Shown here: positions 173-37,845 of the stretch, one piece after another
Numbering within the stretch: position 1 is the stretch's first letter
Layout: every line of letters starts with the position of its first letter
Virus record (IMG/VR): IMGVR_UViG_3300045988_066923
Location: 1 to 37,845 of that record
Strand: one strand, 5' to 3'
Length of the DNA: 37,845 nt
From: a virus
Program-made: the position numbers and the translations under genes
The notes under the pieces: generated by a model
Seen by the model: only the letters and a program-made list of their open reading frames with translations
What the model was told of the DNA's origin: nothing
Databases searched by the model: none

Positions 173-193
173 TGCTAATGGATTTGCTAATGG
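173..193. repeat. Tandem TGCTAATGG x2 (173-181, 185-193; 12-bp phasing); candidate integrase arm-type sites
   Basis: Exact 9-bp direct repeat in the AT-rich arm between the att core and the int stop codon. A GCTAAC pair with the same 12-bp phasing sits in the other arm (37726-37743). Confidence 0.35.
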
Positions 194-1275
194 GTTTCGC
201 CCTCTGGCTGCGGGGCAAACAGGCTGCGCATACGACGCAGATCATCCGTCTCGTCGGCCTCTGCGATGTGCGTGTAGATCTTGTGCATGGTCTGATTGTC
301 GGCCCAGCCGCCCCAGGCCATACACTGTAACTCGCTGACGCCGGCATGGTGGCAGAGGGATGCGAAGGAGTGCCGCAGGCCGTGGATAGAGATATCCGTC
401 ACACCGGCCTCGATGCAGTCCATGTGCAGGTGCTTTTGCAGATACGACGGATTGATTCCGGCTGCCGTCTCGCCGGTCAGATCTTCGGCCAACTCCCGGA
501 CGCGGTCGATCATGATCGGGATATTCCGCTGGCTGCTTTCGTTTTTGTTTTCGTCCTTTCGGGTCCAGCCATCTGACCCCATGACGACTGCACCGGATAC
601 GCGAATCAGCCCGTGCTGCAGGTCAATGTCCTGCGGGCGCACGGCGAAGATCTCCGAACTGCGCAGCGAGTGCAGACCCAGCAGGATCGCCAGTTCCTCC
701 GGGCGGCCCTTGATGGTTTGCAGCAGCGGCGGTATTTCATTGTACCGCAGGAACGGCGTAGGCTTTTTGATGATCTGCGGGATCTTGATCTCCGGGACAG
801 TCAGCTTTGCGTACCGCAGCGAGGCCGCAACGAGCCCCCATGCGTTCTTGACGGTCTTTGCGGTGACGTGCTGCAACTCCTCGTCAATGACTTCCTGCCA
901 GTCCTTTACCTGCTGCGGCTTCTGCTCCATAAGCCCGGCAAAGCGGTCTTTCCGGTATCGCTTGTATCCGAGGATCGTCGACGGCGAGGTTTTGGCCGGG
1001 CGCGCCGCAATGTAAGCGTCCACCAACTGGCCGACAGTCATGTCGGATTTCGACTTGACCTGCCGGCCGGCCAGATACGCCGCTTTTGCTTCGATTGCGG
1101 CCAGCGTACATTCGCGGGCCGAAGCGCGCGTGATCGGGATGCTTTCCCCGCCGAGGCGGAGCTGGACGAAGTAGCTGCCGGATTTCAGCTTGCGGGGCTT
1201 TGGTGTTTTCAAGCGGGCCACACCTCCATATGCGACGTAAAGGCTGCGCGGATCCAGCCGACATTCGGATTGCAC
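187..1275 (-). CDS. int: Tyrosine recombinase / phage integrase
   Basis: C-terminal catalytic signature: LRSSE (Arg), HGLRHSFAS (H-x-x-R), GGWAD, KIYTH (Tyr). Adjacent to the att core. The start is uncertain: the ATG at 1275 overlaps the upstream gene, and a TTG near 1209 has a GGAGG upstream. Confidence 0.93.
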   Translation of the reverse strand: MQSECRLDPRSLYVAYGGVARLKTPKPRKLKSGSYFVQLRLGGESIPITRASARECTLAAIEAKAAYLAGRQVKSKSDMTVGQLVDAYIAARPAKTSPSTILGYKRYRKDRFAGLMEQKPQQVKDWQEVIDEELQHVTAKTVKNAWGLVAASLRYAKLTVPEIKIPQIIKKPTPFLRYNEIPPLLQTIKGRPEELAILLGLHSLRSSEIFAVRPQDIDLQHGLIRVSGAVVMGSDGWTRKDENKNESSQRNIPIMIDRVRELAEDLTGETAAGINPSYLQKHLHMDCIEAGVTDISIHGLRHSFASLCHHAGVSELQCMAWGGWADNQTMHKIYTHIAEADETDDLRRMRSLFAPQPEGETH

Positions 1276-7169: not shown

Positions 7170-7964
7170 ATGAAAGCAATTTGTATTATGAACCTGAAAG
7201 GCGGCGTCGGAAAGACGATCACCGCCGCAAACATGGCTGCGATCCTCGCGCGTGACCACGGCAAAAAGGTGCTGCTGGTCGACTGTGACAGCCAGTGCAA
7301 TCTGACGTGGTTCGTCGGCTCGGAAGAGGAGTGCTGCACCCTGTCGGAACTGCTGACTGATCCGGTCTATCCGGAGTACGAGAGTTACATATCATGGACA
7401 GCCATGTCCGCAGGCGTCGACATTCTGCCGGCGGATGCGTCCCTGATGGCCCTCGATGCGTCGCAGCTGCTGGCTGCGCCCGGCGAAGGGCGTGTTCACG
7501 CGCGGGCGCTGTCCGATCTGGTCGACGCGGTCCGCGAAGACAAAGCGTATGATTTTGTGATCTTCGACTGCCCGCCGGCATTCAACGCAGCGGCGGCCTG
7601 CGCACTTCGCGCGGCGGATGAAGTCATCATCCCGATCAAGCTGGACGCCTTTGCCCTGCTCGGCATGGACAACCTGCTCGCGCAGATCAAGAATATGCAG
7701 CGCATCAATCCCAAGCTCCGGCTGGCCGGTGCGCTCATCACCATGCGGACGCGGGCGGACGGCGTTGACGCCGCAGAGCAGCAGCTGCGCAGTGTGCAGG
7801 GCTTGCCGGTGTTCCAGCGCGTGATCCGCCGCAGCGGCAAGGTTGACGGCTCAACCTTCGACCGGTCTCCGATTACGGTTTTCTCCCCCAAGTCTGCGAC
7901 CGGCATCGATTACCGCCGCTTCGTCCGCGAGTATCTGTCGCAGGAGGGATTGATCGATGGCTAA
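7170..7964 (+). CDS. parA: ParA/Soj-family partition ATPase
   Basis: Deviant Walker A, MNLKGGVGKTITAANMAA...LLVDCDSQCNLT. Confidence 0.9.
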   Translation: MKAICIMNLKGGVGKTITAANMAAILARDHGKKVLLVDCDSQCNLTWFVGSEEECCTLSELLTDPVYPEYESYISWTAMSAGVDILPADASLMALDASQLLAAPGEGRVHARALSDLVDAVREDKAYDFVIFDCPPAFNAAAACALRAADEVIIPIKLDAFALLGMDNLLAQIKNMQRINPKLRLAGALITMRTRADGVDAAEQQLRSVQGLPVFQRVIRRSGKVDGSTFDRSPITVFSPKSATGIDYRRFVREYLSQEGLIDG

Positions 7965-9453
7965 GGGCTTTGATATCACCTCGCTGTTCGGAGACGCCGC
8001 AGCCGTGTCCAAATCGGACACCGACCGAACGGTCACAATGATTGACATTGACCAGCTGCAGGCCAACGAAAAAAACTTTTACAAGGTCGGCAAAAAGGAT
8101 CTTGACGATCTCAAGAGCAGCATCGAGATTTCCGGCATTCTCGACCCGCCGAGCGTCTGCAAGGCGGACGGCGATAAATACCGCATTATCTCCGGGCATC
8201 GCCGATGCGAAGCGGTGCGGCAGCTGGTCAAGGAGGGTCGCAAGGATCTGCGCATGGTTCCCTGTTTCATCCGCAGCCCGCAGAGCGCGGAAATGGAGGA
8301 ACTGGAACTGATCTGGGCGAACGCCACATCGCGCGTTCTGTCCTCGCCGGAGCTGGCCCAGCAGGCCGCCCGCGTGGAGGAGCTTTTGTATCAGCTCAAG
8401 GAGCAGGGCGTGGAATTCCCCGGCCGGATGCGCGACCACGTCGCGCAGGCCTGCAAGATCAGCCGGACGAAGCTGGCGAATCTGCATGCCATTCAGACAA
8501 ACCTCCGGGCGCCGCTGCTCGATATGTGGCGCAAGGGAACGCTCAACGATGCGCAGGCGCTGGAGCTGAGCCGGCTCGACGGCGGGCTACAGGACCGGCT
8601 GGCAGGCCTGTTCCCTCGCATGAGCAAGGACGATCTTCCGGCATCCGCAGCTGTCCAAAGAATTGGAGAGCGCGCAAAAACCGGGGCGAAGTGGCTGCCC
8701 TGTGGTGTGTGCCCGGCCGGCGATGGCCTTACCTGCCCGTCTGCTCGCGGAGACGCATTCCTGCGGCACGATTTGGGCAATTACTACGATATGTGCCAAG
8801 GCTCAAAATGCTGCTGGACCTGCCGCAATGGTAGAACGGCTAGCGGATACAACGCCTGCGACAGTATGTGCAGCCGTGCGAAAGCGGCCCGCACTGCCGC
8901 CAACCAGCAGAGAAAAGACAAGGAAGAAGCAGCAGCCAAAAAGGCCGCGGATAAGGTCAAACAGGCGTTTATTGCGGAGGCGAGGCGCTGGCTTGCTGCC
9001 GCCGATGCCGCCGGGCTGTCGGACAAAACGAAAATCGATATTTCGTCCTATTCTTCGGTGTCGGTCGAGGAACTGCGCAGCTGGGCGGCAGGGAAGGATC
9101 TTGACCATCGCAGTTTTTACCGCAACGATCTGGAACCCCGCTTTGTCGACGTGGCCAAGGTATCCAAGCAGCTGCAGTGCTCCGCGGATTATATCGTCGG
9201 CAACATCGACCAGCCGTGGCCGGTCGTCCCGCTGTCGGAACTGCTGGAATCCGACCAGCCGCCGAAGTGGCGCACCGGTACACCGCCCGCGTCCGGCCAC
9301 TACTGGTGCAGCTTTGACTGTGGCAGTACTGCAATACATAGCGACGCAGTCTATGACGCCGTATTGGACGCGTGGTATTTTCCACGCCACGGCGCGAAAA
9401 TTGATGCAGTCTGCACCGGCTGGGTGCGGCTGCCGGAGGAGGACGACGCATGA
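7957..9453 (+). CDS. ParB/Srx-domain protein with a Cys-rich middle region and a DUF551-like C-terminus
   Basis: N-terminal ParB box SGILDPPSV...YRIISGHRRCEAVRQL. Cys cluster CGVCPAGDGLTCPS...CQGSKCCWTC. C-terminus ...GHYWCSF...VCTGWVRLPEE. Overlaps the ParA gene by 8 nt. Confidence 0.8.
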   Translation: MAKGFDITSLFGDAAAVSKSDTDRTVTMIDIDQLQANEKNFYKVGKKDLDDLKSSIEISGILDPPSVCKADGDKYRIISGHRRCEAVRQLVKEGRKDLRMVPCFIRSPQSAEMEELELIWANATSRVLSSPELAQQAARVEELLYQLKEQGVEFPGRMRDHVAQACKISRTKLANLHAIQTNLRAPLLDMWRKGTLNDAQALELSRLDGGLQDRLAGLFPRMSKDDLPASAAVQRIGERAKTGAKWLPCGVCPAGDGLTCPSARGDAFLRHDLGNYYDMCQGSKCCWTCRNGRTASGYNACDSMCSRAKAARTAANQQRKDKEEAAAKKAADKVKQAFIAEARRWLAAADAAGLSDKTKIDISSYSSVSVEELRSWAAGKDLDHRSFYRNDLEPRFVDVAKVSKQLQCSADYIVGNIDQPWPVVPLSELLESDQPPKWRTGTPPASGHYWCSFDCGSTAIHSDAVYDAVLDAWYFPRHGAKIDAVCTGWVRLPEEDDA

Positions 9454-13142: not shown

Positions 13143-13221
13143 CTCCAGGCGCGGAGGTTTGTCCTCTTTCCTCCGGCCCTCGTGTGGGAACGCTGGGCGC
13201 GGTTCATCGCCGCGCCTGGAG
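13143..13221. repeat. 12-bp perfect inverted repeat CTCCAGGCGCGG / CCGCGCCTGGAG separated by 55 nt
   Basis: Arms at 13143-13154 and 13210-13221, upstream of the likely terminase start. Confidence 0.7.
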
Positions 13222-13252
13222 AAGCCGGCCGGAGAATACCCGAGGTGATGAA

Positions 13253-15388
13253 TTGGCCAAAGAGGATATGATCCGCGCCGATATGCAGGCCGTCGGCACC
13301 TACAACCAGATTTTCGAGCCGACGATCAAGCAGCTGGCCAAGACGGAGCGCGAGCTCAGCCGCGCGGAGAAGGCGTGGAAGAAAGCGGGCGGCCTGATGG
13401 TTGCGACCCTGACCAACAAGACCGGCAGCGAGTACACGGCGAAGGACCCAAATTGGACGGTCGTTGAAAACCTCCGTGCGACGGTCACGGGCCTGCGCAA
13501 TCAGCTGGGTCTGACGCCGACCGGCCTGAATAAGGCCCGCAGCAAGCAGAGCGTGAGCCAGGACAAAGCAAAGATTGAGCAGCTGCTTGACGATGCGCAC
13601 GATTACGCCGTCGAGCACGCGGCAGAGTATCAGCGCGACGTTGACGCATACGTCGACAAGGTGCTCAGCGGTGAGATCGTCGCCTGTGAGTGGATCGTGC
13701 TGGCCTGCCGCCGATATCTCAACGATCTGGCGTCCTGCCGGTGGGACTTCCGGCCGGAACCGGCCTGTGAGATCATCGCGATCATCGAGACGACGCTTTG
13801 CCACCAGCAGGGTGAGTTCCTGGACGCGCGGCCGCTGCGCGGCACACCGTTTTATCTGCTTCCCTATCACAAGTTTATTTGCTTCAATGTCATGGGCTTT
13901 TATCTCAAGGGCACCAGTGAGCGCCGATTTAAAGAAGCCCTTGACTTTATCCCCCGAAAAAACGTCAAGACCACATTTGCTGCATCGCTGGCGTGGGCGC
14001 TGGCCCTGTATGAGCGCAGATCCGGCTCCAAGGTCTATGAGGTCGGCGGCGCGCTCAAGCAGGCGCTCGAAGGCTTCGATTTTTTGAAGTATAACGTCAA
14101 CCGGCTGGGCGTGACCGTCAAGGAGGATGCGGAACGCGGCCTGCGCATCACGGACAACAATATGGAGCACTCCATTGTCGGCGATATCGGCGACGGCTTT
14201 ATCTCCATCAACGCGCTGGCCGCGAACCCCGACAAGCAGGACTCCTTTAATGCCAACATCGTCATTTGTGACGAGGCGCACGTGTATAAGTCGCCGAAGC
14301 AGTTCCAGAAGCTTCGCGACGCGACGAAGGCCTACACCAACAAGCTCGTTATCATCATCTCTTCCGGTGGCGCGAACGCACTCGGCTTTCTGGCGAAGCG
14401 CGTGGAGTTTTGCAAGAAGATCCTCGACGGGACGATCAAGGACCCATATGCGGATGAGATTTTTATCTTTATCGCGCAGGCCCCGACCAACGAGAATGGC
14501 GACGTTGACCTGCTGGACCCGAAGGCGCTGGAGGCCGCAAGCCCCGGCTGGGGCTACAGCATCCGCCCGCAGGCGATGATCAACGACGCCGCGCAGGCCG
14601 AAGCAGATCCGCAGCTACGTCCTGAGTTTTTGAATACCTCGCTTAATATCTTCACGGCCGCGCTGCGCGCCTGGTTCGATATTACCGAGTGGCGCAAGTC
14701 CGACGCGAAATACAACTGGACGCTGGCACAGCTCGCACGCCTGCCAATCAAATGGTATGGCGGCGCTGACCTTTCCAAGATGCACGACCTGACAGCCTGC
14801 TGCCTGTTCGGCCATTACAAGGGCGTCGATATCATCATCCCGCATTGCTGGTTCCCGCGGCCAGCGGCGGAGATCAAGGCCAACAAGGATCAAATCCCGC
14901 TGTTTGGCTGGAAAGACGATGGCTGGCTGGATATGACCAACGACAAAGTCACGAATTACAGTGACATTGTCCGCTGGTTCAAGAAGCGCCGCGCCGAAGG
15001 CTTCAGGCTTCGCCGCATCGGACACGATCCGAAATTCTGCCGCGAGTATTTCGTCGAGATGAAAAAGGAGCATTTCCCGGTCAAGGCGCAAATGCAAACC
15101 TTTATCCTCAAATCCGAGGGGTTCCGCTATCTCGAAAAGTCCGCGAAGCAAGGCACACTCTACTATATGCACGCTGAACCGATGGAGTATTGCGTGCAGA
15201 ACGTCGCCGGTGTTGAAAAAGCTGACGACATGGTGCAGTACCAGAAAATCGAGCCGAACTTGCGCATTGACGTGTTTGACTGCGCGGTCTTCGCGGCCTG
15301 CGCCTATCTGAATGATCTGAGCGAGAGCAGCAAGGGCGCTGGCTGGTACAGCAGTGCCCAGCATGAAACGGAGGCTGATGCCGATTGA
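13253..15388 (+). CDS. Terminase: a P27-type small-subunit-like N-terminal region fused in frame to a large subunit (Terminase_1-type)
   Basis: N-terminal ~130 aa (YNQIFEPTIKQLAKTEREL...LRNQLGLTPTGLNKA) looks like TerS. From ...VDKVLSGEIVACEWIVLACRRYLNDL onward it looks like TerL. No stop codon separates the two. The frame is open from 13184; TTG 13253 follows GAGGTGA. Confidence 0.85.
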   Translation: MAKEDMIRADMQAVGTYNQIFEPTIKQLAKTERELSRAEKAWKKAGGLMVATLTNKTGSEYTAKDPNWTVVENLRATVTGLRNQLGLTPTGLNKARSKQSVSQDKAKIEQLLDDAHDYAVEHAAEYQRDVDAYVDKVLSGEIVACEWIVLACRRYLNDLASCRWDFRPEPACEIIAIIETTLCHQQGEFLDARPLRGTPFYLLPYHKFICFNVMGFYLKGTSERRFKEALDFIPRKNVKTTFAASLAWALALYERRSGSKVYEVGGALKQALEGFDFLKYNVNRLGVTVKEDAERGLRITDNNMEHSIVGDIGDGFISINALAANPDKQDSFNANIVICDEAHVYKSPKQFQKLRDATKAYTNKLVIIISSGGANALGFLAKRVEFCKKILDGTIKDPYADEIFIFIAQAPTNENGDVDLLDPKALEAASPGWGYSIRPQAMINDAAQAEADPQLRPEFLNTSLNIFTAALRAWFDITEWRKSDAKYNWTLAQLARLPIKWYGGADLSKMHDLTACCLFGHYKGVDIIIPHCWFPRPAAEIKANKDQIPLFGWKDDGWLDMTNDKVTNYSDIVRWFKKRRAEGFRLRRIGHDPKFCREYFVEMKKEHFPVKAQMQTFILKSEGFRYLEKSAKQGTLYYMHAEPMEYCVQNVAGVEKADDMVQYQKIEPNLRIDVFDCAVFAACAYLNDLSESSKGAGWYSSAQHETEADAD

Positions 15389-31682: not shown

Positions 31683-31926
31683 AAAGTGGCTGATTTGCAG
31701 CGCGCTCGTCAGCCTTGCGCTCATCATCGCCTGCGCGGCAGGCGCAGACCTGACGGAGATCACGCTTGCGGTGCTGGCTGAAACGACGGCTTCCAGCGGC
31801 TTTTACCTCTGGAAAGCCAAAAATGAGAACCGCGCGAAGTACGCGCAGAAGTACATGGATAAATGGGCCGCAAAATACGGCCCGGAAGCGGCAGCACGCA
31901 TCGCAGAGATCGTGCTGAAGGACTGA
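31669..31926 (+). CDS. Holin-like small membrane protein (two TM segments, charged C-terminus)
   Basis: TM1 WLICSALVSLALIIACAAG and TM2 ITLAVLAETTASSGFYLW, followed by a Lys-rich tail. Confidence 0.5.
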   Translation: MEFSKKWLICSALVSLALIIACAAGADLTEITLAVLAETTASSGFYLWKAKNENRAKYAQKYMDKWAAKYGPEAAARIAEIVLKD

Positions 31927-31940
31927 AAGGAGTATACTTA

Positions 31941-32240
31941 ATGAAAAAACTGTTTATCTCTCAGCCTATGAAGGAAAAGACCAACGAGGAAATTCGGAAA
32001 GAACGTGAAGATGCGATCTTCTGCGCAAAGGAGCTGATGGGCGATGAAATCGAAGTGATTGACAGCTTCTTTGAAAACGCTCCGGCGGAGGCAAGGCCAC
32101 TGTGGTATCTTGGCGAATCGCTGAAACTGCTGTCTACGGCTGACGTTGCGTACTTCGCCTCCGGTTGGAAGAACGCCCGCGGCTGCAAGATCGAGCATAT
32201 CTGCGCGGAGCAGTACGGCATCAACATCGTGGAAGCGTGA
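31941..32240 (+). CDS. DUF4406 / nucleoside deoxyribosyltransferase-like small protein embedded in the lysis cassette
   Basis: AAGGAG SD. MKKLFISQPM ... LLSTADVAYFASGWKNARGCKIEHICAEQYGINIV matches the ISGPM ... gWe-S-x-G-x-x-x-E pattern. Visibly AT-richer than its flanks. Confidence 0.6.
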   Translation: MKKLFISQPMKEKTNEEIRKEREDAIFCAKELMGDEIEVIDSFFENAPAEARPLWYLGESLKLLSTADVAYFASGWKNARGCKIEHICAEQYGINIVEA

Positions 32241-32252
32241 AAGGAGTAAGCT

Positions 32253-32561
32253 ATGGACTACACACAAATCATCTCGGCAGTGATCGCGCTCATCAGCGCG
32301 CTCGTTTCGGCATTTCTGATCCCGTGGCTCAAAACCAAGATCGACGCGGATAAGCTGCAAACGATCCGCACTTACGTCGAGATCGGCGTCAAGGCGGCGG
32401 AGCAGCTGTACACCGCGACGGACGGCGCGGCGAAAAAGGCGTATGTTGTGAACTTCCTCGCCGAGAAGGGCATTCAATTTGATGTGGAAACGATCGACAA
32501 GCTGATCGAGGCCGCCGTGCTGCAGCTGCATCACGAGTTGTACGGGAGTGAGCGGGCATGA
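32253..32561 (+). CDS. Holin, LL-H family-like
   Basis: N-terminal TM IISAVIALISALVSAFLIPWL, then VEIGVKAAEQL...GAAKKAYVVNFLAEKGI...LIEAAVLQL. Immediately upstream of the endolysin. Confidence 0.8.
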   Translation: MDYTQIISAVIALISALVSAFLIPWLKTKIDADKLQTIRTYVEIGVKAAEQLYTATDGAAKKAYVVNFLAEKGIQFDVETIDKLIEAAVLQLHHELYGSERA

Positions 32562-33268
32562 GCATCAAAATCGGACAGGCCAGCCTTGGAGAAACCGGAG
32601 GACGCAACCAGCAGCCCGGCAACCAGACCGGGCGGGAGCTGAATCTCTCCAGCTGGTACAATGGCCGCTGGCTCGGCATCTTGCGCTACAAGAGCCGCAA
32701 AAAGGCCGAGCGGGCCGCGCAGACGTGCGAGGCGGCCATTAAGAACCCGAGCATCGGCTACGACATGGACGGCCGGAACACGGCATACGAGGCCGCCAGA
32801 GCCGTCAGGTGGGACGTGAGCAGGATCGCAAAGCCTGTGGAGACGGACTGCTCCGCGCTCATGATGCTCTGCGCCGTGGCCGCAGGCTGCGAGGCCGTCG
32901 CCGCGCTCTACAAAAAGCAGGGCAACAGCTGCACGACATACTGCATGCTGCACGATTGGCCTGCAACGGGAGACTTCGAGCTGCTGACTGGCAGCAAGTA
33001 TCTGACGACGGACGCCAATCTCCTGCGCGGCGACGTACTGGTAAGCTCGGGCCATACCGTGATGGCCCTCGAAGATGGAAAAAATGCAGAGGAGGAAACC
33101 GAAATGGTAGAAAAGAGCAAGATCATCGTGGACGGCAAGGAAGTCGCCGTCGAGCGGATCCTGAAAAACGGTACGAACTACGTCAAGGTGCGCGATCTGG
33201 CCGCCGCACTGGATCTCGAAGTCAGCAACAAGGGCAATATCGCCGTGCTGACGCACAAAGAAAAGTAA
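32558..33268 (+). CDS. Endolysin: Cys/His peptidase-type catalytic domain plus a C-terminal copper-amine-oxidase-N-like wall-binding domain
   Basis: Candidate catalytic Cys (VETDCSALMM) and His (VSSGHTVMAL). C-terminus IIVDGKEVAVERILKNGTNYVKVRDLAAALDLEV. Confidence 0.85.
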   Translation: MSIKIGQASLGETGGRNQQPGNQTGRELNLSSWYNGRWLGILRYKSRKKAERAAQTCEAAIKNPSIGYDMDGRNTAYEAARAVRWDVSRIAKPVETDCSALMMLCAVAAGCEAVAALYKKQGNSCTTYCMLHDWPATGDFELLTGSKYLTTDANLLRGDVLVSSGHTVMALEDGKNAEEETEMVEKSKIIVDGKEVAVERILKNGTNYVKVRDLAAALDLEVSNKGNIAVLTHKEK

Positions 33269-33388
33269 GCCCCCGCCAGGCGGCGGGCCGAAGGGAGTGA
33301 CGAAAGCATAACTGCGCGGCTGGCTCTGCCGAAGGAGCTGGAATACCTCACGCGCAGCGACTGGGAGCGCGTCGCTGACGAGGGCTTA

Positions 33389-33541
33389 TTGGATGAAATC
33401 GATCAGAAGATCGTGAATCTTTATATCGTGCGCAGGCTCCCGCAGATGGACGCTGCCGGTGAAATCGGCATCGACCGCAAAACCATCTCCCGCCGCCTGC
33501 CGCACATCTACAACACCGCCCGTCGCCTGACAGGAGCATAA
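33389..33541 (+). CDS. Sigma-70 region-4-like small HTH ORF (start uncertain)
   Basis: Core IDQKIVNLYIVRRLPQMDAAGEIGIDRKTISRRL. TTG 33389 follows GAGGG. The frame is open back to 33269 with no ATG or GTG; ATA 33308 sits 10 nt after GAAGGGAG. Confidence 0.35.
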   Translation: MDEIDQKIVNLYIVRRLPQMDAAGEIGIDRKTISRRLPHIYNTARRLTGA

Positions 33542-33547
33542 CGAAGG

Positions 33548-33581
33548 AGCACCCCGAGCATCACGCTCGGGGTGCTTTTTT
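33548..33581 (+). terminator. Rho-independent terminator of the late operon, shared with the convergent minus-strand cassette
   Basis: 12-bp stem AGCACCCCGAGC / GCTCGGGGTGCT, loop ATCAC, then T6. An A-run lies on the other side. Confidence 0.9.
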
Positions 33582-33590
33582 GCTTAGCGG

Positions 33591-33782
33591 TTATTCGGAA
33601 GGTTCATTTTTCTGCATATACGCGTCAATCCACCCACGTATCAAAGCACTGGGCGTTGTGCCATTTGCTTTTGCGGCAGACTTAAAATCATCGGCAAGGT
33701 CGCGCCGCATCTTGCAGCTTACCAGCGTCATGTTTGTGGCGTCCCACTTGTCGCGGGCGCGCTTTTGGGCCTCACTCGGCAT
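33591..33782 (-). CDS. Ribbon-helix-helix (CopG/Arc-like) DNA-binding protein, 63 aa
   Basis: Trimmed to the ATG at 33782, 6 nt after GGGAGG. MPSEAQKRARDKWDATNMTLVSCKMRRDLADDFKSAAKANGTTPSALIRGWIDAYM has a beta-strand/helix/helix layout. Last gene of the cassette. Confidence 0.7.
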   Translation of the reverse strand: MPSEAQKRARDKWDATNMTLVSCKMRRDLADDFKSAAKANGTTPSALIRGWIDAYMQKNEPSE

Positions 33783-34011
33783 CGGCGACCTCCCAATTTG
33801 CGCGGCTACGCAGGATGTCAATCTCAAAAACATCCGCGTGTGCAGGAATCGACTCAAATTCCTGCGTGAGAAGGTTGAAGGCGTTTCCTCCATCATTCCA
33901 GCCCTCCGCCCCAACGGGCAGATAGAGCTGACTATCATCCGGCCCATTGAGCGTGAAAAGGCCGTCATGCTTCAACGCGCCGCGGACTGTCCATTCTCCA
34001 GCGTATTTCAT
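33772..34011 (-). CDS. Small strongly acidic protein, unknown function
   Basis: GGGGAGG SD. 14 D/E against 5 K/R in 79 aa. Overlaps the RHH gene by 11 nt. Confidence 0.65.
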   Translation of the reverse strand: MKYAGEWTVRGALKHDGLFTLNGPDDSQLYLPVGAEGWNDGGNAFNLLTQEFESIPAHADVFEIDILRSRANWEVADAE

Positions 34012-34032
34012 CTAGAAAAACCTCCCCTGTTC

Positions 34033-34338
34033 TCATCGCCACATGGCGACGCACTTCGCAAGCATACGTCCGCTTGCGCTGCGGATGCTCACCGTTCCCT
34101 TAATTGCGTCGCCGTCCAAGCGCTCCGCAGTTTCGATGTAAACTTTCGTGATAGTTTCATCTTGCGTGAACAGGAAGCCGTCACCGTCCTCGGTTTCAGC
34201 TACGCGAATAAAATCCGGCAGTTCAATTTCTGCGTGAAGCCACGATCCGGGATAATTCTCCTTCTGGGTGGCTTTGATGAAAATCTTATCCGGGATATTC
34301 CTAAAATCAGAACGGATGCGGTAAAGATGTGCAGTCAT
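34033..34338 (-). CDS. Small protein, unknown function
   Basis: GAGGAGGA SD; 101 aa. Confidence 0.65.
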   Translation of the reverse strand: MTAHLYRIRSDFRNIPDKIFIKATQKENYPGSWLHAEIELPDFIRVAETEDGDGFLFTQDETITKVYIETAERLDGDAIKGTVSIRSASGRMLAKCVAMWR

Positions 34339-34341
34339 TTT

Positions 34342-34695
34342 TTATTCCTCCTCTAAATCTGCTTGCAGCTTGTCGAACCATGCTTCTGTTTCCGCCCGGC
34401 AGTGGGCTGCGTACTCTTCGTATGTTTCGAAATCCCCGATAATGTATCGGATATTGGTAAGTCTATAGATTTCGAATGTGTGGATATCCGCGAAGCGTTC
34501 CGCAATCTTATGCCCTTGCAGGTTCTTGCCGTAAGGTTCGTCTCCTACTGGAGCCATAACCTTCGCCAGAATTTCCGTTTGTTCCTCATACCATGCGTTG
34601 CGTTCCTCCTGCGTCTCAAACCGCATCGGTTCCTGCGCGCGACCGGCGGCGCTTCCGGCCTTCATGATTCTGGTGATTTCCTCTACGTTTTCCAT
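34342..34695 (-). CDS. Acidic protein, unknown function
   Basis: Trimmed to the ATG at 34695 after AAGGAGGA. 117 aa, Glu-rich, with a C-terminal DLEEE. Confidence 0.65.
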   Translation of the reverse strand: MENVEEITRIMKAGSAAGRAQEPMRFETQEERNAWYEEQTEILAKVMAPVGDEPYGKNLQGHKIAERFADIHTFEIYRLTNIRYIIGDFETYEEYAAHCRAETEAWFDKLQADLEEE

Positions 34696-34711
34696 TGTTG
34701 TTTCCTCCTTC

Positions 34712-35266
34712 TCAGCCCAACGCGTCAATGAGCTTCGACGCGTTGGACTCCGTTACGATCAGCTCAAGCTTTTTTACAACATCGACGATTGTAATCTTGG
34801 AAGTGCGGGCTACGATTGCCGGGCGGTTTTTCGTGAACCATGCTTCGACGGACAGGCCCTCCGATTCCGCCCGCTTCTCTGCTGCGGCGTGCCATTCTTC
34901 ACTCATGTTTTCGAGCCGGACTTTATCTTCCACCGCGAAGAATCTGGCGAGCTTTACGTGGCAGCCCGCAAGATCACGAGAGATGAATTCGTCGCGCAGG
35001 GCCTCTGCATAGGAAATCTGCTTTTCGGAAACGCCGGTGATCTTGGGAAGCGGATGCTCGGTGCCGAACTCGGCGGCAATGTATGCGTCTAGTTTAGCCT
35101 TTGCTTCTGCTTTTTTCGCTGCGGCGTAGCAGGACGGGCAGACAGTAACGTGTTCCGCCGCCCACTCTTCGTAGGAAGCAGCGGCGCTGCTATTGGCGCA
35201 AGTGCGGACGTGCTCGAACGTGCCCCCACAGATTTCGCATTTGCAAGTAATCTTCGCCTTTGCCAT
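34712..35266 (-). CDS. Zinc-ribbon protein, unknown function
   Basis: GGAGGG SD. N-terminus CKCEIC...17 aa...C...CPSC. Central LPKITGVSEKQISYAEALRDEF. First gene of the cassette. Confidence 0.7.
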   Translation of the reverse strand: MAKAKITCKCEICGGTFEHVRTCANSSAAASYEEWAAEHVTVCPSCYAAAKKAEAKAKLDAYIAAEFGTEHPLPKITGVSEKQISYAEALRDEFISRDLAGCHVKLARFFAVEDKVRLENMSEEWHAAAEKRAESEGLSVEAWFTKNRPAIVARTSKITIVDVVKKLELIVTESNASKLIDALG

Positions 35267-35388: not shown

Positions 35389-35426
35389 CACAAATGCCCC
35401 GGAAGTGTCCCACAAATGTCCCCCGG
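35389..35426 (+). repeat. Direct repeat CACAAATG(C/T)CCCC(C)GG x2 with 22-bp phasing, upstream of the plus-strand cassette
   Basis: Copies at 35389-35402 and 35411-35426. The second runs into the hairpin CCCCGG-CGAAA-CCGGGG (35421-35437). Confidence 0.5.
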
Positions 35427-35473
35427 CGAAACCGGGGAGCTACTAAAATGGTATCAGAAAGGGGCGATACCGC

Positions 35474-35974
35474 ATGGCATACAACCCGTATACGGGCCGT
35501 TGGGAAATGGATCCCGCACAGCAGATCCAGATGCAGCCCATGCCGCGGCCGCAGATGCCGCAAATGCCGCAGCAGCCGCCGAAGCTCGGCGTTCTGACCG
35601 TGGCCAGCGAAGCCAGCATCAACAATCTGCAGATGCAGCCGAACGACAACGCGCTTGCGCTGCATGAGACAGAGAATCTGCTGTACTACATCCGCACCGA
35701 CAGCATGGCAGCAAAGACCATTGCACGGTTCCGGATCTTCCCGGAGCCGACGGAAGAGGAAAAGGCGGCGAACCAGCTGCAGGAGCAGCTGAGGCAGATC
35801 ACAGACGGCCTGCAGAGCATGGCCGGAAAAATTGAGGAAATGGAGGGAAAACTCAATGCAAAATCCGATTATGGCCCTGATGGGCGGAAACGGCGGGGGA
35901 AGCAAACTGCTGAACGGCCTGCTGCAGACGGCGAAGACGACGCTGCAGGGGCAAAGCCCGCAGATGGTGCTTAG
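35474..35974 (+). CDS. Gln/Pro/Met-rich N-terminus protein, unknown function
   Basis: MAYNPYTGRWEMDPAQQIQMQPMPRPQMPQMPQQPP..., then a globular segment and a coiled-coil-like segment. The last ~40 codons overlap the next gene. Confidence 0.6.
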   Translation: MAYNPYTGRWEMDPAQQIQMQPMPRPQMPQMPQQPPKLGVLTVASEASINNLQMQPNDNALALHETENLLYYIRTDSMAAKTIARFRIFPEPTEEEKAANQLQEQLRQITDGLQSMAGKIEEMEGKLNAKSDYGPDGRKRRGKQTAERPAADGEDDAAGAKPADGA

Positions 35975-36065
35975 TTTCCTGGCTTCGCAGCCCGGCTTTG
36001 AGGCGTGGTTCGAGGTGAACAAAAACAAGACGGTCGGCGAGCTCGTCGGCCAGATCGGCAAGTGA
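35856..36065 (+). CDS. Small protein (69 aa), unknown function
   Basis: ATG at 35856, 8 nt after GGAGGG. MQNPIMALMGGNGGGSKLLNGLLQ... Confidence 0.5.
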   Translation: MQNPIMALMGGNGGGSKLLNGLLQTAKTTLQGQSPQMVLSFLASQPGFEAWFEVNKNKTVGELVGQIGK

Positions 36066-36119
36066 TACCGCGCGCAAGCGCCTATCAAAATTCATTCCAC
36101 CCAGAAAGGAGGGAAAACC

Positions 36120-36686
36120 ATGGATAAGGATTATGGCTTCGGCGGATGGGGCATTGTCATCCTGATCGCGCTGTTCTTCCTGCTCTTCGCGGGCAGAGGC
36201 TTCGGCGGAAACGGCAGCGGCGAGAGCGCACCGGCTACGCAGGCCGACGTGCAGCGCGCGACGGACTTTGCGGCCCTTGAACGCCAGAACAACGAGGGTG
36301 TCGCGGCAACGCGCCAGGGCGCGTATGACGTCACCAGCGCCGTCAAGGACAACGCCTACAACATCCTCGGCGAGCTGCGCGATCTGCAGTCAGTCACGGA
36401 GGCGGGCTTCTCCAGCCAGCAGAAATGCTGCTGCGAGATCCTGCGTGCGATCGACGGCGTTAACTACAACGCCAGCATCAACGCATGCGAGATCAAGACG
36501 GCGATCCACACCGAGGGCGAGGCGACCCGGACGCTCCTGCAGCAGCAGGAGAACCAGCGTCTGCGCGATGAGCTTGCACAGAGCAGAGCCGCGAACAACG
36601 ACTATATGCAGTCGCAGTACATCCTCGGCCAGCTGGGACGGTACTACCAGAACCCGCCCTGCAATCCGTGCGGCTGCGGCGGCTGA
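36120..36686 (+). CDS. Gly-rich N-terminal TM protein with a CCC motif and a C-terminal CNPCGCGG
   Basis: AAAGGAGGG SD. N-terminus GFGGWGIVILIALFFLLFAGRGFGGNGSG, mid-protein QQKCCCEIL, and C-terminus YYQNPPCNPCGCGG. Confidence 0.7.
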   Translation: MDKDYGFGGWGIVILIALFFLLFAGRGFGGNGSGESAPATQADVQRATDFAALERQNNEGVAATRQGAYDVTSAVKDNAYNILGELRDLQSVTEAGFSSQQKCCCEILRAIDGVNYNASINACEIKTAIHTEGEATRTLLQQQENQRLRDELAQSRAANNDYMQSQYILGQLGRYYQNPPCNPCGCGG

Positions 36687-36761
36687 CACGGGTACACCCT
36701 GATATAGCTATCCGGGGCATAATGCCCCTTGAAATAAAGCCAAAAGAAAGGAGCTTTAAAA

Positions 36762-37220
36762 ATGGCTTGCAATAGCGGAAATGGAAACCGGGCGTATCAG
36801 AAATCCTGCGTCCGATATTTTAATAACTCGCCCCAGCTGCTCGCGGCTGACAGCGCAAACGTGCTGACTCTGGCCGGGGCAAAGGTCGTCAACTCCGGAT
36901 CGTCCATCCAGGTCGAGCCGCAGAGCTATGATACGGTCAAGATCGGCCTGTACCATCTGGCCGCGGACGCGGTCATCGCGGCGACGGCCGCGGGCGTCCT
37001 GACCCTGCAGTGGTACATGGACGGCGTCGCACTGCCCTGCACACTCAAACGGATCACACTGCCGGCCTCTGGCAATGCGGAAATCCACACGGAGACGGAC
37101 TTGGAACTCTCCGGGTGCTGCTGCTGCGTCAACCACACATTCACGCTCGTGGCGACAACCGACAGCACGGCGGCAGGCTCCGTGATCGAGCTCTGCACGG
37201 GCCTGCTGAAACTCGCGTGA
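36762..37220 (+). CDS. BclA-C-terminal-like (TNF/C1q-type jelly-roll) protein with a CCCC run
   Basis: AAAGGAG SD. Beta-rich pattern GLYHLAADAVIAATAAGVLTLQWYMDGVALP...FTLVATT...LLKLA resembles BclA_C-type domains. Contains SGCCCCVNH. Confidence 0.6.
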   Translation: MACNSGNGNRAYQKSCVRYFNNSPQLLAADSANVLTLAGAKVVNSGSSIQVEPQSYDTVKIGLYHLAADAVIAATAAGVLTLQWYMDGVALPCTLKRITLPASGNAEIHTETDLELSGCCCCVNHTFTLVATTDSTAAGSVIELCTGLLKLA

Positions 37221-37229
37221 GGTGCTGAC

Positions 37230-37718
37230 ATGGATGAGATTGCAGCGTACAAGAGCAAGCTGCACGAAGCGCTCAAAAAGGAGATGGCCGCGCCCATCTC
37301 CTGCAGAAGCGTCAGTAACTGCACAATGCTGATGGACGCGATCTGCGCAGCTGACAAGCTGAGCGATAAGCCGAGCACTTACGCACAACACTTCGATCGC
37401 GAAGAGGCCATGCAGTGGGCGGACAGGATGCAGAACGCAGACGGATCGACCGGCCCGCATTGGACGATGGAGCAGACAACGGCCATTGCGGACAGCATGG
37501 GCATCCAAGAGCATGAAATCCCGCACTGGGCGTGGGGCGTGACCATGAACATGATGTACTCGGATTACTACCCCGTCGCGGTAGAATTCGGCCTCAACCG
37601 CCCGGAATTCTACGCAGCCCTCGCCAAAGCGTTTTTGCTCGACAAAGACGGCCCCGGCCCGGAGCGGAAGCTGATGGAGTATTATGAGCATATTGCAAAG
37701 CGCAGTGTCCAATCCTGA
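37230..37718 (+). CDS. Conserved-looking protein of unknown function (HWTMEQT ... NMMYSDYY motifs)
   Basis: GAGGTG SD. Last gene before the right att repeat. Confidence 0.7.
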   Translation: MDEIAAYKSKLHEALKKEMAAPISCRSVSNCTMLMDAICAADKLSDKPSTYAQHFDREEAMQWADRMQNADGSTGPHWTMEQTTAIADSMGIQEHEIPHWAWGVTMNMMYSDYYPVAVEFGLNRPEFYAALAKAFLLDKDGPGPERKLMEYYEHIAKRSVQS

Positions 37719-37790: not shown

Positions 37791-37845
37791 GGGTTCGATT
37801 CCCCTCAGCTCCACCATGTAAAACCAAAACCCGCAGTTGATAAAA
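37791..37845. repeat. Right copy of the 55-bp terminal direct repeat (att core / attR)
   Basis: Exact identity to 1-55. The bases just upstream (..acagt) give a T-C mismatch in the would-be T-stem, so tRNA identity starts at the repeat edge. The window ends here, so the repeat could be longer. Confidence 0.9.

Follow-up and report, generated by a model that had tools for sequence, protein, structure and literature searches.

The 37,845-nucleotide stretch of viral DNA described here (IMG/VR record IMGVR_UViG_3300045988_066923, positions 1 to 37,845; hereafter the window) ends in a cassette of five plus-strand genes, P1 to P5, at positions 35474-37718. Comparison with related loci identifies this cassette as a conserved phage module with the gene order (SIG4)-P1-P2-P3-slot 4-P5, where SIG4 is a small gene for a sigma-70 region-4-like helix-turn-helix protein and slot 4 is the position behind P3 that is filled in the window by P4. 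P3 is a predicted membrane-type helical protein with a conserved run of three cysteines, and P4, judged by its predicted structure, belongs to the BclA_C/TNF/C1q-like superfamily. The parts are of known kinds; their combination is undescribed. With a probability of roughly 0.4, we favor the reading that this is a phage-autonomous late module that would act at the host cytoplasmic membrane and would not remodel the spore or cell surface of the lysogen. An initial annotation of the same DNA had proposed such a remodeling, a spore or envelope conversion carried by a prophage. That interpretation is partly supported: the fold it recognized is right, and a spore or lysogenic-conversion function is unlikely.

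The cassette and its conservation

The five genes are co-oriented and well provided with ribosome-binding sites, as the initial annotation had it. A Shine-Dalgarno-like sequence stands 7-9 nt upstream of every start (in gene order GAAAGGGG, GGAGGG, AAAGGAGGG, AAAGGAG and GAGGTG, with GGAGGG serving P2). The motifs it had quoted, from the Q/P/M-rich first product to the HWTMEQT and NMMYSDYY of the last, are all present:

35474-35974, plus strand: P1, 166 aa, Q/P/M-rich N-terminus QIQMQPMPRPQMPQMPQQPP
35856-36065, plus strand: P2, about 69 aa from the ATG, Gly/Met-rich N-terminus
36120-36686, plus strand: P3, 188 aa, with QQKCCCEIL and the C-terminus PPCNPCGCGG
36762-37220, plus strand: P4, 152 aa, with SGCCCCVNH (CCCC at nt 37116-37127)
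37230-37718, plus strand: P5, 162 aa, with GPHWTMEQT and NMMYSDYY

Scanning genomes with P3 patterns gave 65 loci, and iterative profile searches covered all open reading frames (ORFs) of 75 loci with P3. P1 lies 5' of P3 in 67 of the 75 and a BclA_C-like P4 lies 3' of it in 41; P5 is present in 33 and SIG4 in 21. About 27 loci have an integrase or serine recombinase gene, mostly 3' and on the opposite strand. Behind exact or near-exact copies of the cassette the integrase follows directly on the opposite strand with attP between; those contigs are circularly permuted phage genomes. P3 is 95-97% identical between phages whose integrases share about 40% identity. In loci with readable flanks, the module is found behind tail, lysis or polyvalent-protein genes, at their distal end. 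Lysis genes are 0-3.5 kb away in nine loci, and the scanned flanks on large contigs hold tape-measure, baseplate, tail-fiber or giant polyvalent-protein genes. A synteny comparison that took in non-phage loci had been proposed as a check on the conversion idea; the module recurs in more than 60 divergent loci, and no non-phage copy was seen in the scanned flanks of loci on large contigs.

Some flanks have features of their own. A giant 1800-3150-aa polyvalent protein (LPD38, ART-PolyVal) is encoded just 5' of SIG4 or the module in L009, L081, L083-L085 and L041, and L041 also has a host ABC transporter about 350 nt past P5. A gene with a PolyVal metallopeptidase domain lies about 1.9 kb 3' of the P3-like gene in Bacteroides phage C3_41T2LP (L080). 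A 125-kb contig of a Faecalibacterium metagenome-assembled genome (MAG; CAKTGQ010000006.1) carries two modules about 39 kb apart (L028 and L029), which suggests two related prophages in tandem or close together. Matches of 4.7-6.7 kb labeled 'Bacteriophage sp.' were considered as a small independent element and rejected, these linear, unverified virome scaffolds being fragments.

Phages and hosts that carry the module

All module matches are of gut or anaerobe origin. Temperate Clostridia phages with tyrosine or serine recombinases carry the module, and P1-P2-P3 is found in isolated C. perfringens phages (vB_CpeS-17DYC, HMD-PC1 and others) that have no annotated integrase or repressor and in which all genes are co-oriented. 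A prophage of a Dialister isolate (2.5-Mb sequence) has the order tail fiber, P1-P2-P3, holin-like gene, endolysin and terminase, with neither P4 nor P5; Dialister is non-sporulating. In one locus (L042) the gene context is that of a myovirus, a baseplate wedge gene lying upstream. In Caudoviricetes assigned to Methanomassiliicoccales, the module adjoins a diversity-generating retroelement tail protein and a reverse transcriptase. For the window phage itself, a near-identical MAG contig (L012) points to a host that is probably a member of the Oscillospiraceae. The closest INPHARED relatives by capsid (S. suis Javan phages, Bacillus phage 1 and GBSV1, with Streptococcus, Bacillus and Geobacillus hosts) are absent from the P3 matches. 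For the isolates and the crAss-like genomes, host assignment is independent of MAG binning.

Many crAss-like (Bacteroidota) phages also carry the module, and Bacteroides phage C3_41T2LP has a P3-like gene. The order in cr53_1 is tail protein, reverse transcriptase, holin, a 'LysB/FtsL-like' gene, a DUF7841 gene, the P3-like gene, two small genes and virion structural genes. Its DUF7841 protein is mislabeled 'RNA polymerase sigma factor/ubiquitin-like', and its phrog_16490 protein is called 'spike protein/glycoprotein'. In this genome (L079, NC_055889) the late genes by the module have in-frame stops under translation table 11, TAG being assumed to encode Gln; the DUF7841 homologue is free of them.

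Cysteine runs and the membrane-type protein P3

The consecutive cysteines had been singled out as unusual, and the counts bear this out. In 19 other genes of the same prophage, Cys makes up 1.39% of 6768 residues and CCC does not occur; at that frequency, 5e-4 CCC runs are expected per 188 aa. One of the search patterns used in the genome scan itself contained CCC and so biased counts on the scanned loci, and the motif was recounted on protein matches from pattern-independent searches. Among the 237 full-length P3 homologues obtained in this way, CCC is kept in 210 (89%) and at least two Cys fall within the final 30 residues in 204. In the P4 family the position of the Cys cluster is conserved and its number varies from 1 to 4 Cys. 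The Cys runs of the cassette are not due to chance.

P3 is the sole cassette protein with a hydrophobic segment; P1, P2, P4 and P5 have, by eye, no N-terminal hydrophobic signal-like segment. It consists of an acidic N-terminal peptide, a 13-residue hydrophobic core, IVILIALFFLLFA (nt 36153-36191), set between GFGGWG and GRGFGGNG, a long predicted helix, the CCC run (nt 36426-36434) and the tail CNPCGCGG. It is a member of phrog_16490 (E 6e-17). Searches found 328 homologues, and an exhaustive HMM search (E<=1e-3) puts the family at 1952 clusters at 50% identity, nearly all of 180-240 aa; there was no fusion among the 150 matches listed. The alignment shows a conserved N-terminal peptide, a poly-Gly-flanked core, a helical region with Q-x-CCC-E-x-LRAID and a Cys/Gly-rich tail. 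The AF2 model has helices at residues 10-24 and 41-177; with a pLDDT of only 53 it is too poor for a fold search. The P3 profile gave no significant match to PDB sequences.

In 66 distinct P3 sequences the hydrophobic core averages 13.8 residues and its flanks are Gly-rich. The N-terminal flank is acidic (3.0 D/E vs 1.0 K/R) and the C-terminal flank more positive (1.5 K/R vs 2.0 D/E), the first charged residue after the core being usually R or K by eye. From these charges, the positive-inside rule predicts an N-out/C-in topology. A complex on the cytoplasmic face is favored because such a topology fits both a large Cys-rich domain and partner proteins that lack signal-like N-termini.

P4 and the exchangeable heads of slot 4

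The AF2 model of P4, built with 17 homologues, is all-beta with a pLDDT of 88.2 and a pTM of 0.82. It has the ten-stranded jelly-roll of the BclA_C/TNF/C1q-like superfamily. The best Foldseek matches in the PDB are the BclA C-terminal domain, ExsFA/BxpB, TNF ligands (BAFF, EDA) and C1q-like proteins (E 6e-8 to 2e-5, TM 0.6-0.7), with Chlamydia Pgp3 and some phage tail-fiber tips as further matches. The BclA-C/TNF/C1q-like pattern that the initial annotation had recognized in the product of 36762-37220 is thus confirmed in the model. In BFVD the model is closest to stand-alone proteins of about 135-153 aa encoded by human-gut phage MAGs, of which some are named 'BclA protein'; C-terminal domains of collagen-repeat or C1q phage fibers come next.

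The BclA_C profile search that had been recommended gave a divided answer. The window P4 has no Pfam match at E<=1, and two distant members of its family pass the gathering cut-off. A profile of 30 divergent P4-like proteins retrieves members with matches to Pfam BclA_C (PF18573), of which P0174 (41.7 bits) and P0179 (38.5 bits) exceed the cut-off of 38. Weaker scores were obtained for five other database members (23.6-33.6 bits) and for the L009 orthologue (22.9 bits); the L084 and L085 orthologues have a precomputed BclA_C match. On the model and the profile, P4 is placed in the BclA_C/TNF/C1q superfamily at the fold level and at the family level. The protein has an N-terminal Cys motif (MACN…KSC), 8 Cys in all, only about 14 residues ahead of the first strand and no GXX repeats.

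Slot 4 is filled in 68 of the 75 loci, by P4 in 41 and in 27 by another protein, here called P4'; no locus has both and seven have neither. P4' is a small Cys-rich beta protein of 108-135 aa, encoded directly 3' of P3 where P4 is missing. It commonly starts with a Cys motif (MxC… or MxCxxC), as do many P4 proteins (MxC), and many members end in CC or CxC. Ten P4' proteins had no Pfam match at E<=1, and a profile search found no PDB sequence relative. The P4 and P4' profiles are unrelated by hhalign (probability 0.9%), as is the P4 profile from crAss gp65 and from a 119-aa C. perfringens protein. Since hhalign found no relationship, the slot-4 proteins are not all called TNF-like. Because the Cys/Gly tail of P3 immediately precedes slot 4 in gene order, we infer that this tail may be joined to the N-terminus of the head by thiols or metal.

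P1, P2 and P5

In the family alignment, P1 has a low-complexity N-terminus rich in Y, N, P, Q and M, a conserved domain of about 60 aa, and a coiled-coil with a charged tail. Phrog_21718, a family of unknown function, is matched by 36 of 51 P1-family members; the same 51 matched no Pfam family, and a profile search found no PDB relative. P1 and P2 share 119 nt (35856-35974) in different frames, compared with a 0-44 nt overlap in relatives. The N-terminus of P2 is similar by eye to that of its C. perfringens counterpart (NPxxxLMGGN vs NPMQLIQMMQGGN), and on this likeness the overlap is probably real. The gap between P1 and P3 holds a gene of 70-96 aa in L009, L056, L077 and L083-L085.

P5 belongs to Pfam DUF7841 (PF25223, E 8.8e-27), the family whose genes adjoin P3-like genes in crAss-like phages. 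It is far more divergent among sister cassettes than P1-P4; between the window and L004, P5 is 36% and P3 95% identical. Single-sequence and profile searches of P5 against PDB sequences gave no significant match, nor did scans of P1-P4 against Pfam, NCBIfam and PADLOC.

Position in the prophage and transcription

The window is read as one complete integrated prophage because a perfect 55-nt direct repeat stands at both ends, as attL and attR. The cassette reads toward attR, as had been stated, and stops 72 nt short of it. The repeat looks like the 3' end of a tRNA gene (GGGTTCGATTCCCC…CCACCA; …GGTTCGATTCC…CCA); ARAGORN called no tRNA anywhere in the window. The genes run in the order integrase, DnaB-like helicase, ParB-like protein, terminase, portal, protease, major capsid protein, tape measure, tail genes, holin and a gene in the endolysin position. 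Behind the latter come the SIG4 ORF, a hairpin terminator, four minus-strand genes and then the cassette:

1-55, no strand: attL
187-1275, minus strand: tyrosine integrase
32253-32561: holin, lysis gene
32558-33268: endolysin-position gene, after the holin
33389-33541, plus strand: SIG4, sigma-70 region-4-like helix-turn-helix gene (NCBIfam sigma70-ECF, E 0.001)
33548-33576, no strand: strong bidirectional hairpin terminator, 13-bp stem with 9 G-C pairs, T run on the plus strand
33591-35266, minus strand: variable block of four genes, outside the conserved module
35389-35449, plus strand: promoter-like region of the cassette, two CACAAATGYCCC repeats and a -10-like TAAAAT at 35444-35449
37791-37845, no strand: attR, same as attL

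SIG4 homologues are 74-120 aa long with Pfam Sigma70_r4 and lie 5' of P1 in 21 loci, immediately so in most. SIG4 is the first gene of the module in relatives; in the window it is separated from P1 by the minus-strand block. Its frame is open back to 33269 with no canonical start far enough upstream for the full domain. The likely start is an in-frame ATA at 33308 behind the ribosome-binding site GAAGGGAG; ATA is found in L012 also, and TTG in L013. Either a non-canonical start would be used or the gene may be decaying. The hairpin, which also stands behind SIG4 in L012, closes both the late operon and the converging minus-strand block.

The minus-strand block has a perfect promoter of its own (TTGACA-17-TATAAT at 35340-35312). 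It is missing from L012 (97-100% identical), in which holin, lysin and SIG4 are followed directly by P1-P5; in L004-L008, ToxN or other genes stand in its place. By this comparison the block is a variable cargo hotspot inserted inside the module, since SIG4 of L012 runs straight into P1-P5.

The promoter-like region of the cassette contains exact, operator-like direct repeats of CACAAATGYCCC at 35389-35400 and 35411-35422, 22 nt apart and absent from the rest of the window. Its -10-like element is TAnAAT, a -35 hexamer is lacking, and the region is conserved 5' of P1 in L012, L004, L013 and L014. The -10 box is of the sigma-A type; no sigma-E or sigma-K boxes were seen by eye. A conserved region of this kind standing behind the late-operon terminator suggests that the cassette is its own, activator-dependent transcription unit, with the SIG4 product as a candidate activator.

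Other observations on the window lie outside the module. A 17-nt palindrome, GTGTCCAATTCTGACAC, has five plus-strand copies with at most 3 mismatches (4200, 8005, 15445, 25015 and 37705; 0.03 expected), the last of which overlaps the P5 stop codon. The motif may serve for protein binding, the ParB-like protein of 7957-9453 being one conceivable ligand. In the 734-aa terminase ORF (13184-15388), residues 29-130 match a small-subunit family and the part from residue 135 on matches large-subunit families; it could be a TerS-TerL fusion or an over-extended ORF. A nucleoside 2-deoxyribosyltransferase-like gene (31863-32240; phrog_355, E 1e-17) lies directly 5' of the holin.

A proposed role at the membrane and its alternatives

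In the favored reading, P3 would insert into the cytoplasmic membrane by its short Gly-flanked core, leaving the small acidic N-terminal peptide outside. Its 135-residue helix would lie on the cytoplasmic side and oligomerize as a coiled-coil stalk, with the CCC run and the Cys/Gly tail tied through thiols or metal to the Cys motif at the N-terminus of the slot-4 protein. This head would be P4 in the window, presumably as a trimer, and an unrelated Cys-rich beta protein elsewhere. P1 and P2, with their low-complexity N-termini and small domains, and the DUF7841 protein P5 would be cytoplasmic partners. The complex would be transcribed from its own activator-dependent promoter, made up of the -10 box and the two repeats, perhaps with the SIG4 product as activator. 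The output we prefer is that the module would control or carry out the final step at the membrane, meaning the timing of lysis or egress, or membrane disruption. A late membrane step is our guess because the module usually neighbors tail, lysis or polyvalent-protein genes where the late region ends. The cytoplasmic membrane would also be the element common to all the hosts (monoderm, diderm and possibly archaeal) and virion types.

Several points weigh against this reading. There is no homologue with a known function, and P4 and P5 are absent from some loci. The window already has a canonical holin and endolysin, so that a role in lysis would be accessory. In the C. perfringens phages, the module lies between antirepressor and recombination genes, away from the lysis genes. 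The P3 model is of low confidence, and the predicted topology depends on a modest charge bias together with the expectation that Cys-rich domains are cytoplasmic. Many host names depend on MAG binning, an error-prone procedure, and some of the bins are plainly mistaken. Copies that are nearly identical ended up in an Alloprevotella bin and in an unclassified 'bacterium' bin, and homologues at greater distance in bins of Bacteroides and E. coli. Finally, TNF/C1q-like knobs of phages are typically the distal domains of virion fibers, which favors a fiber.

Such a virion accessory fiber is possible, if somewhat doubtful. P3 would be its trimeric coiled-coil stalk, joined by a Cys knot to an exchangeable receptor-binding knob in slot 4, with P1, P2 and P5 as adaptors or chaperones; the hydrophobic N-terminus of P3 would be buried in the virion or would penetrate the host membrane at infection. 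The BclA_C/TNF/C1q fold is common at the distal ends of phage fibers (collagen-repeat, C1q and peptidase-S74 proteins in BFVD; A-1(L) and phi812 in the PDB), and the swapping of unrelated heads is typical of receptor-binding proteins. The module stands behind tail-fiber genes in the Dialister, crAss cr53_1, vir215, vir335 and Mailhella loci, and the missing signal peptides are compatible with assembly in the cytoplasm. However, P1-P3 are common to sipho-, myo- and crAss-type virions, which share no attachment site, and the nearest INPHARED capsid relatives are not among the P3 matches. In the lineage of the window a terminator precedes the cassette and its separate promoter-like region, in C. 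perfringens the module adjoins antirepressor and recombination genes, and a strongly hydrophobic, Gly-flanked N-terminus is unusual in a soluble fiber. Other annotators have called P3-like genes 'spike protein/glycoprotein' or 'outer capsid protein/viral fiber', but these labels are unverified.

It is quite unlikely that the module serves superinfection exclusion or defense, in which a membrane-anchored P3 complex, made from the prophage or early in infection, would block DNA entry by competitors or abort infection, with slot 4 as the specificity element. A membrane protein combined with variable recognition-type domains would suit such a role, as would a cassette that adjoins attP and the integrase and has its own promoter-like region. 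Early genes adjoin the module in the C. perfringens phages, and the neighboring variable block has ToxN in relatives, so that the region tolerates defense cargo. Among related phages, genes for defense and exclusion are as a rule patchily distributed and change fast, whereas P3 stays 95-97% identical where integrases are only about 40% identical, and its family spans bacterial phyla. What truly varies is the minus-strand block beside the cassette, not the cassette itself. The best PADLOC score was only 13.2 bits (E 0.006-0.008, insignificant).

Conversion of the spore (exosporium or coat) or cell surface, as first proposed, is very improbable. P3 would anchor in the mother-cell or forespore membrane, and P3 and P4 would form a cross-linked BclA/ExsFA-like layer. 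P4 does have a BclA_C/ExsFA fold, with a Pfam BclA_C signature at the family level, and the host of the window phage is probably a member of the Oscillospiraceae. Exosporium proteins lack signal peptides and are assembled in the mother-cell cytoplasm, which an N-out/C-in P3 would face. The position of the cassette is typical as well, Firmicutes prophages often keeping conversion genes between the lysis genes and attR. The module is nevertheless found in phages that lack an integrase and in those whose hosts are non-sporulating or not Firmicutes (Dialister, Bacteroides/crAss, Mailhella, Treponema bins and Methanomassiliicoccales), and no chromosomal non-phage copy was seen. Lysogenic-conversion morons are patchy and limited to temperate phages; this module is conserved across more than 60 divergent loci, including integrase-less C. 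perfringens and crAss-like phages. The cassette lacks a collagen-like region and a match to Ena (DUF3992) or F-ENA (DUF4183), and its -10 box is of the sigma-A type with no sigma-E or sigma-K boxes by eye.

Seen more broadly, the module may tentatively be put forward as a new late-stage phage apparatus, for egress, exclusion or as an assembly platform, with a membrane-anchored CCC coiled-coil stalk and interchangeable Cys-rich heads on the cytoplasmic face. If so, a stalk-and-head machine, seemingly limited to anaerobic habitats, would be shared by gut phages of bacteria and possibly archaea and would link phage proteins in evolution to spore-surface architecture, one class of head being homologous to BclA/ExsFA. 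A lysis, egress or exclusion device would be a new component of phage-host membrane biology in anaerobes; a fiber would be a new modular receptor-binding system. P3 and its partners form one of the more widespread uncharacterized modules of gut phages, from Clostridial prophages to crAss-like viruses, and are currently annotated as 'hypothetical' or misleadingly ('spike glycoprotein', 'sigma factor/ubiquitin-like'). That phages use the BclA_C fold independently of spores calls for caution in reading 'exosporium-like' prophage domains as spore conversion. Culturable carriers (vB_CpeS-17DYC, HMD-PC1 and Bacteroides phage C3_41T2LP) make the module testable.

Comparison with known systems

P3, relatives of P1, and P5 belong to PHROG 16490, PHROG 21718 and DUF7841, families without functional annotation. 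Literature searches on DUF7841, BclA with prophage, glycine zipper with lysis cassette, and C. perfringens virion proteomes did not turn up the module, nor any account of these three families joined in a single module with a Cys-rich head, whether BclA_C-like or of the alternative kind. For DUF7841, a full-text search gave 0 papers, and a Crassvirales review mentions only generic spanins and holins. No cassette protein gave a significant match to the PADLOC models of anti-phage defense.

The P4 model superposes on the BclA C-terminal domain (3twi, 1wck, 2z5w) and on ExsFA (7r1m, 9h3d) with TM 0.60-0.70 and E 6e-8 to 4e-7. ExsFA offers a parallel: P4, too, consists of one stand-alone domain of about 150 aa, is extended briefly at its N-terminus and lacks a signal peptide. 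Unlike BclA, it has neither collagen-like repeats nor an N-terminal exosporium-targeting region, and a BclA-type nap glycoprotein was rejected on that account. It further differs from BclA and ExsFA, which belong to the exosporium of the Bacillus cereus group, in being encoded by phages, paired with a membrane protein, endowed with CCCC and found in hosts that include exosporium-free ones. F-ENA subunits are defined by DUF4183 (PMC12357932). Membership in Ena or F-ENA was rejected because P4 and the ten P4' proteins have no DUF3992 or DUF4183 match at E<=1; the resemblance is limited to the N-terminal Cys motif.

P4 shares its fold class (TM 0.56-0.75) with phage fiber knobs such as the carbohydrate-binding domain of the cyanophage A-1(L) short fiber (8ke9) and the central spike knob of phi812 (9eul). 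As in these systems, the gene lies 3' of tail genes and the head is apparently exchangeable. In contrast to them, P4 is a separate polypeptide without a shaft, belongs to a separate transcription unit and has a partner, P3, with a membrane-type segment.

P3 resembles i-spanins (lambda Rz) and class III holins (T4 gpT) in being a predicted bitopic protein of about 200 aa with an N-terminal transmembrane-like segment, a long coiled-coil-type helix and conserved cysteines. In lambda Rz, an N-terminal transmembrane segment is combined with a coiled coil held by intermolecular disulfides. Like the genes of phage lysis proteins, the P3 gene frequently neighbors holin or endolysin genes. It is, however, unrelated to Rz and gpT in sequence (no Pfam holin or spanin match; the best is phrog_1026, an Rz-like spanin, at E 0.085), and its predicted topology is the opposite. 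Unlike spanins, P3 also occurs in monoderm hosts, which need none, and unlike single-pass lysis proteins it is accompanied by P1 and P2 and, in most cases, by a slot-4 protein.

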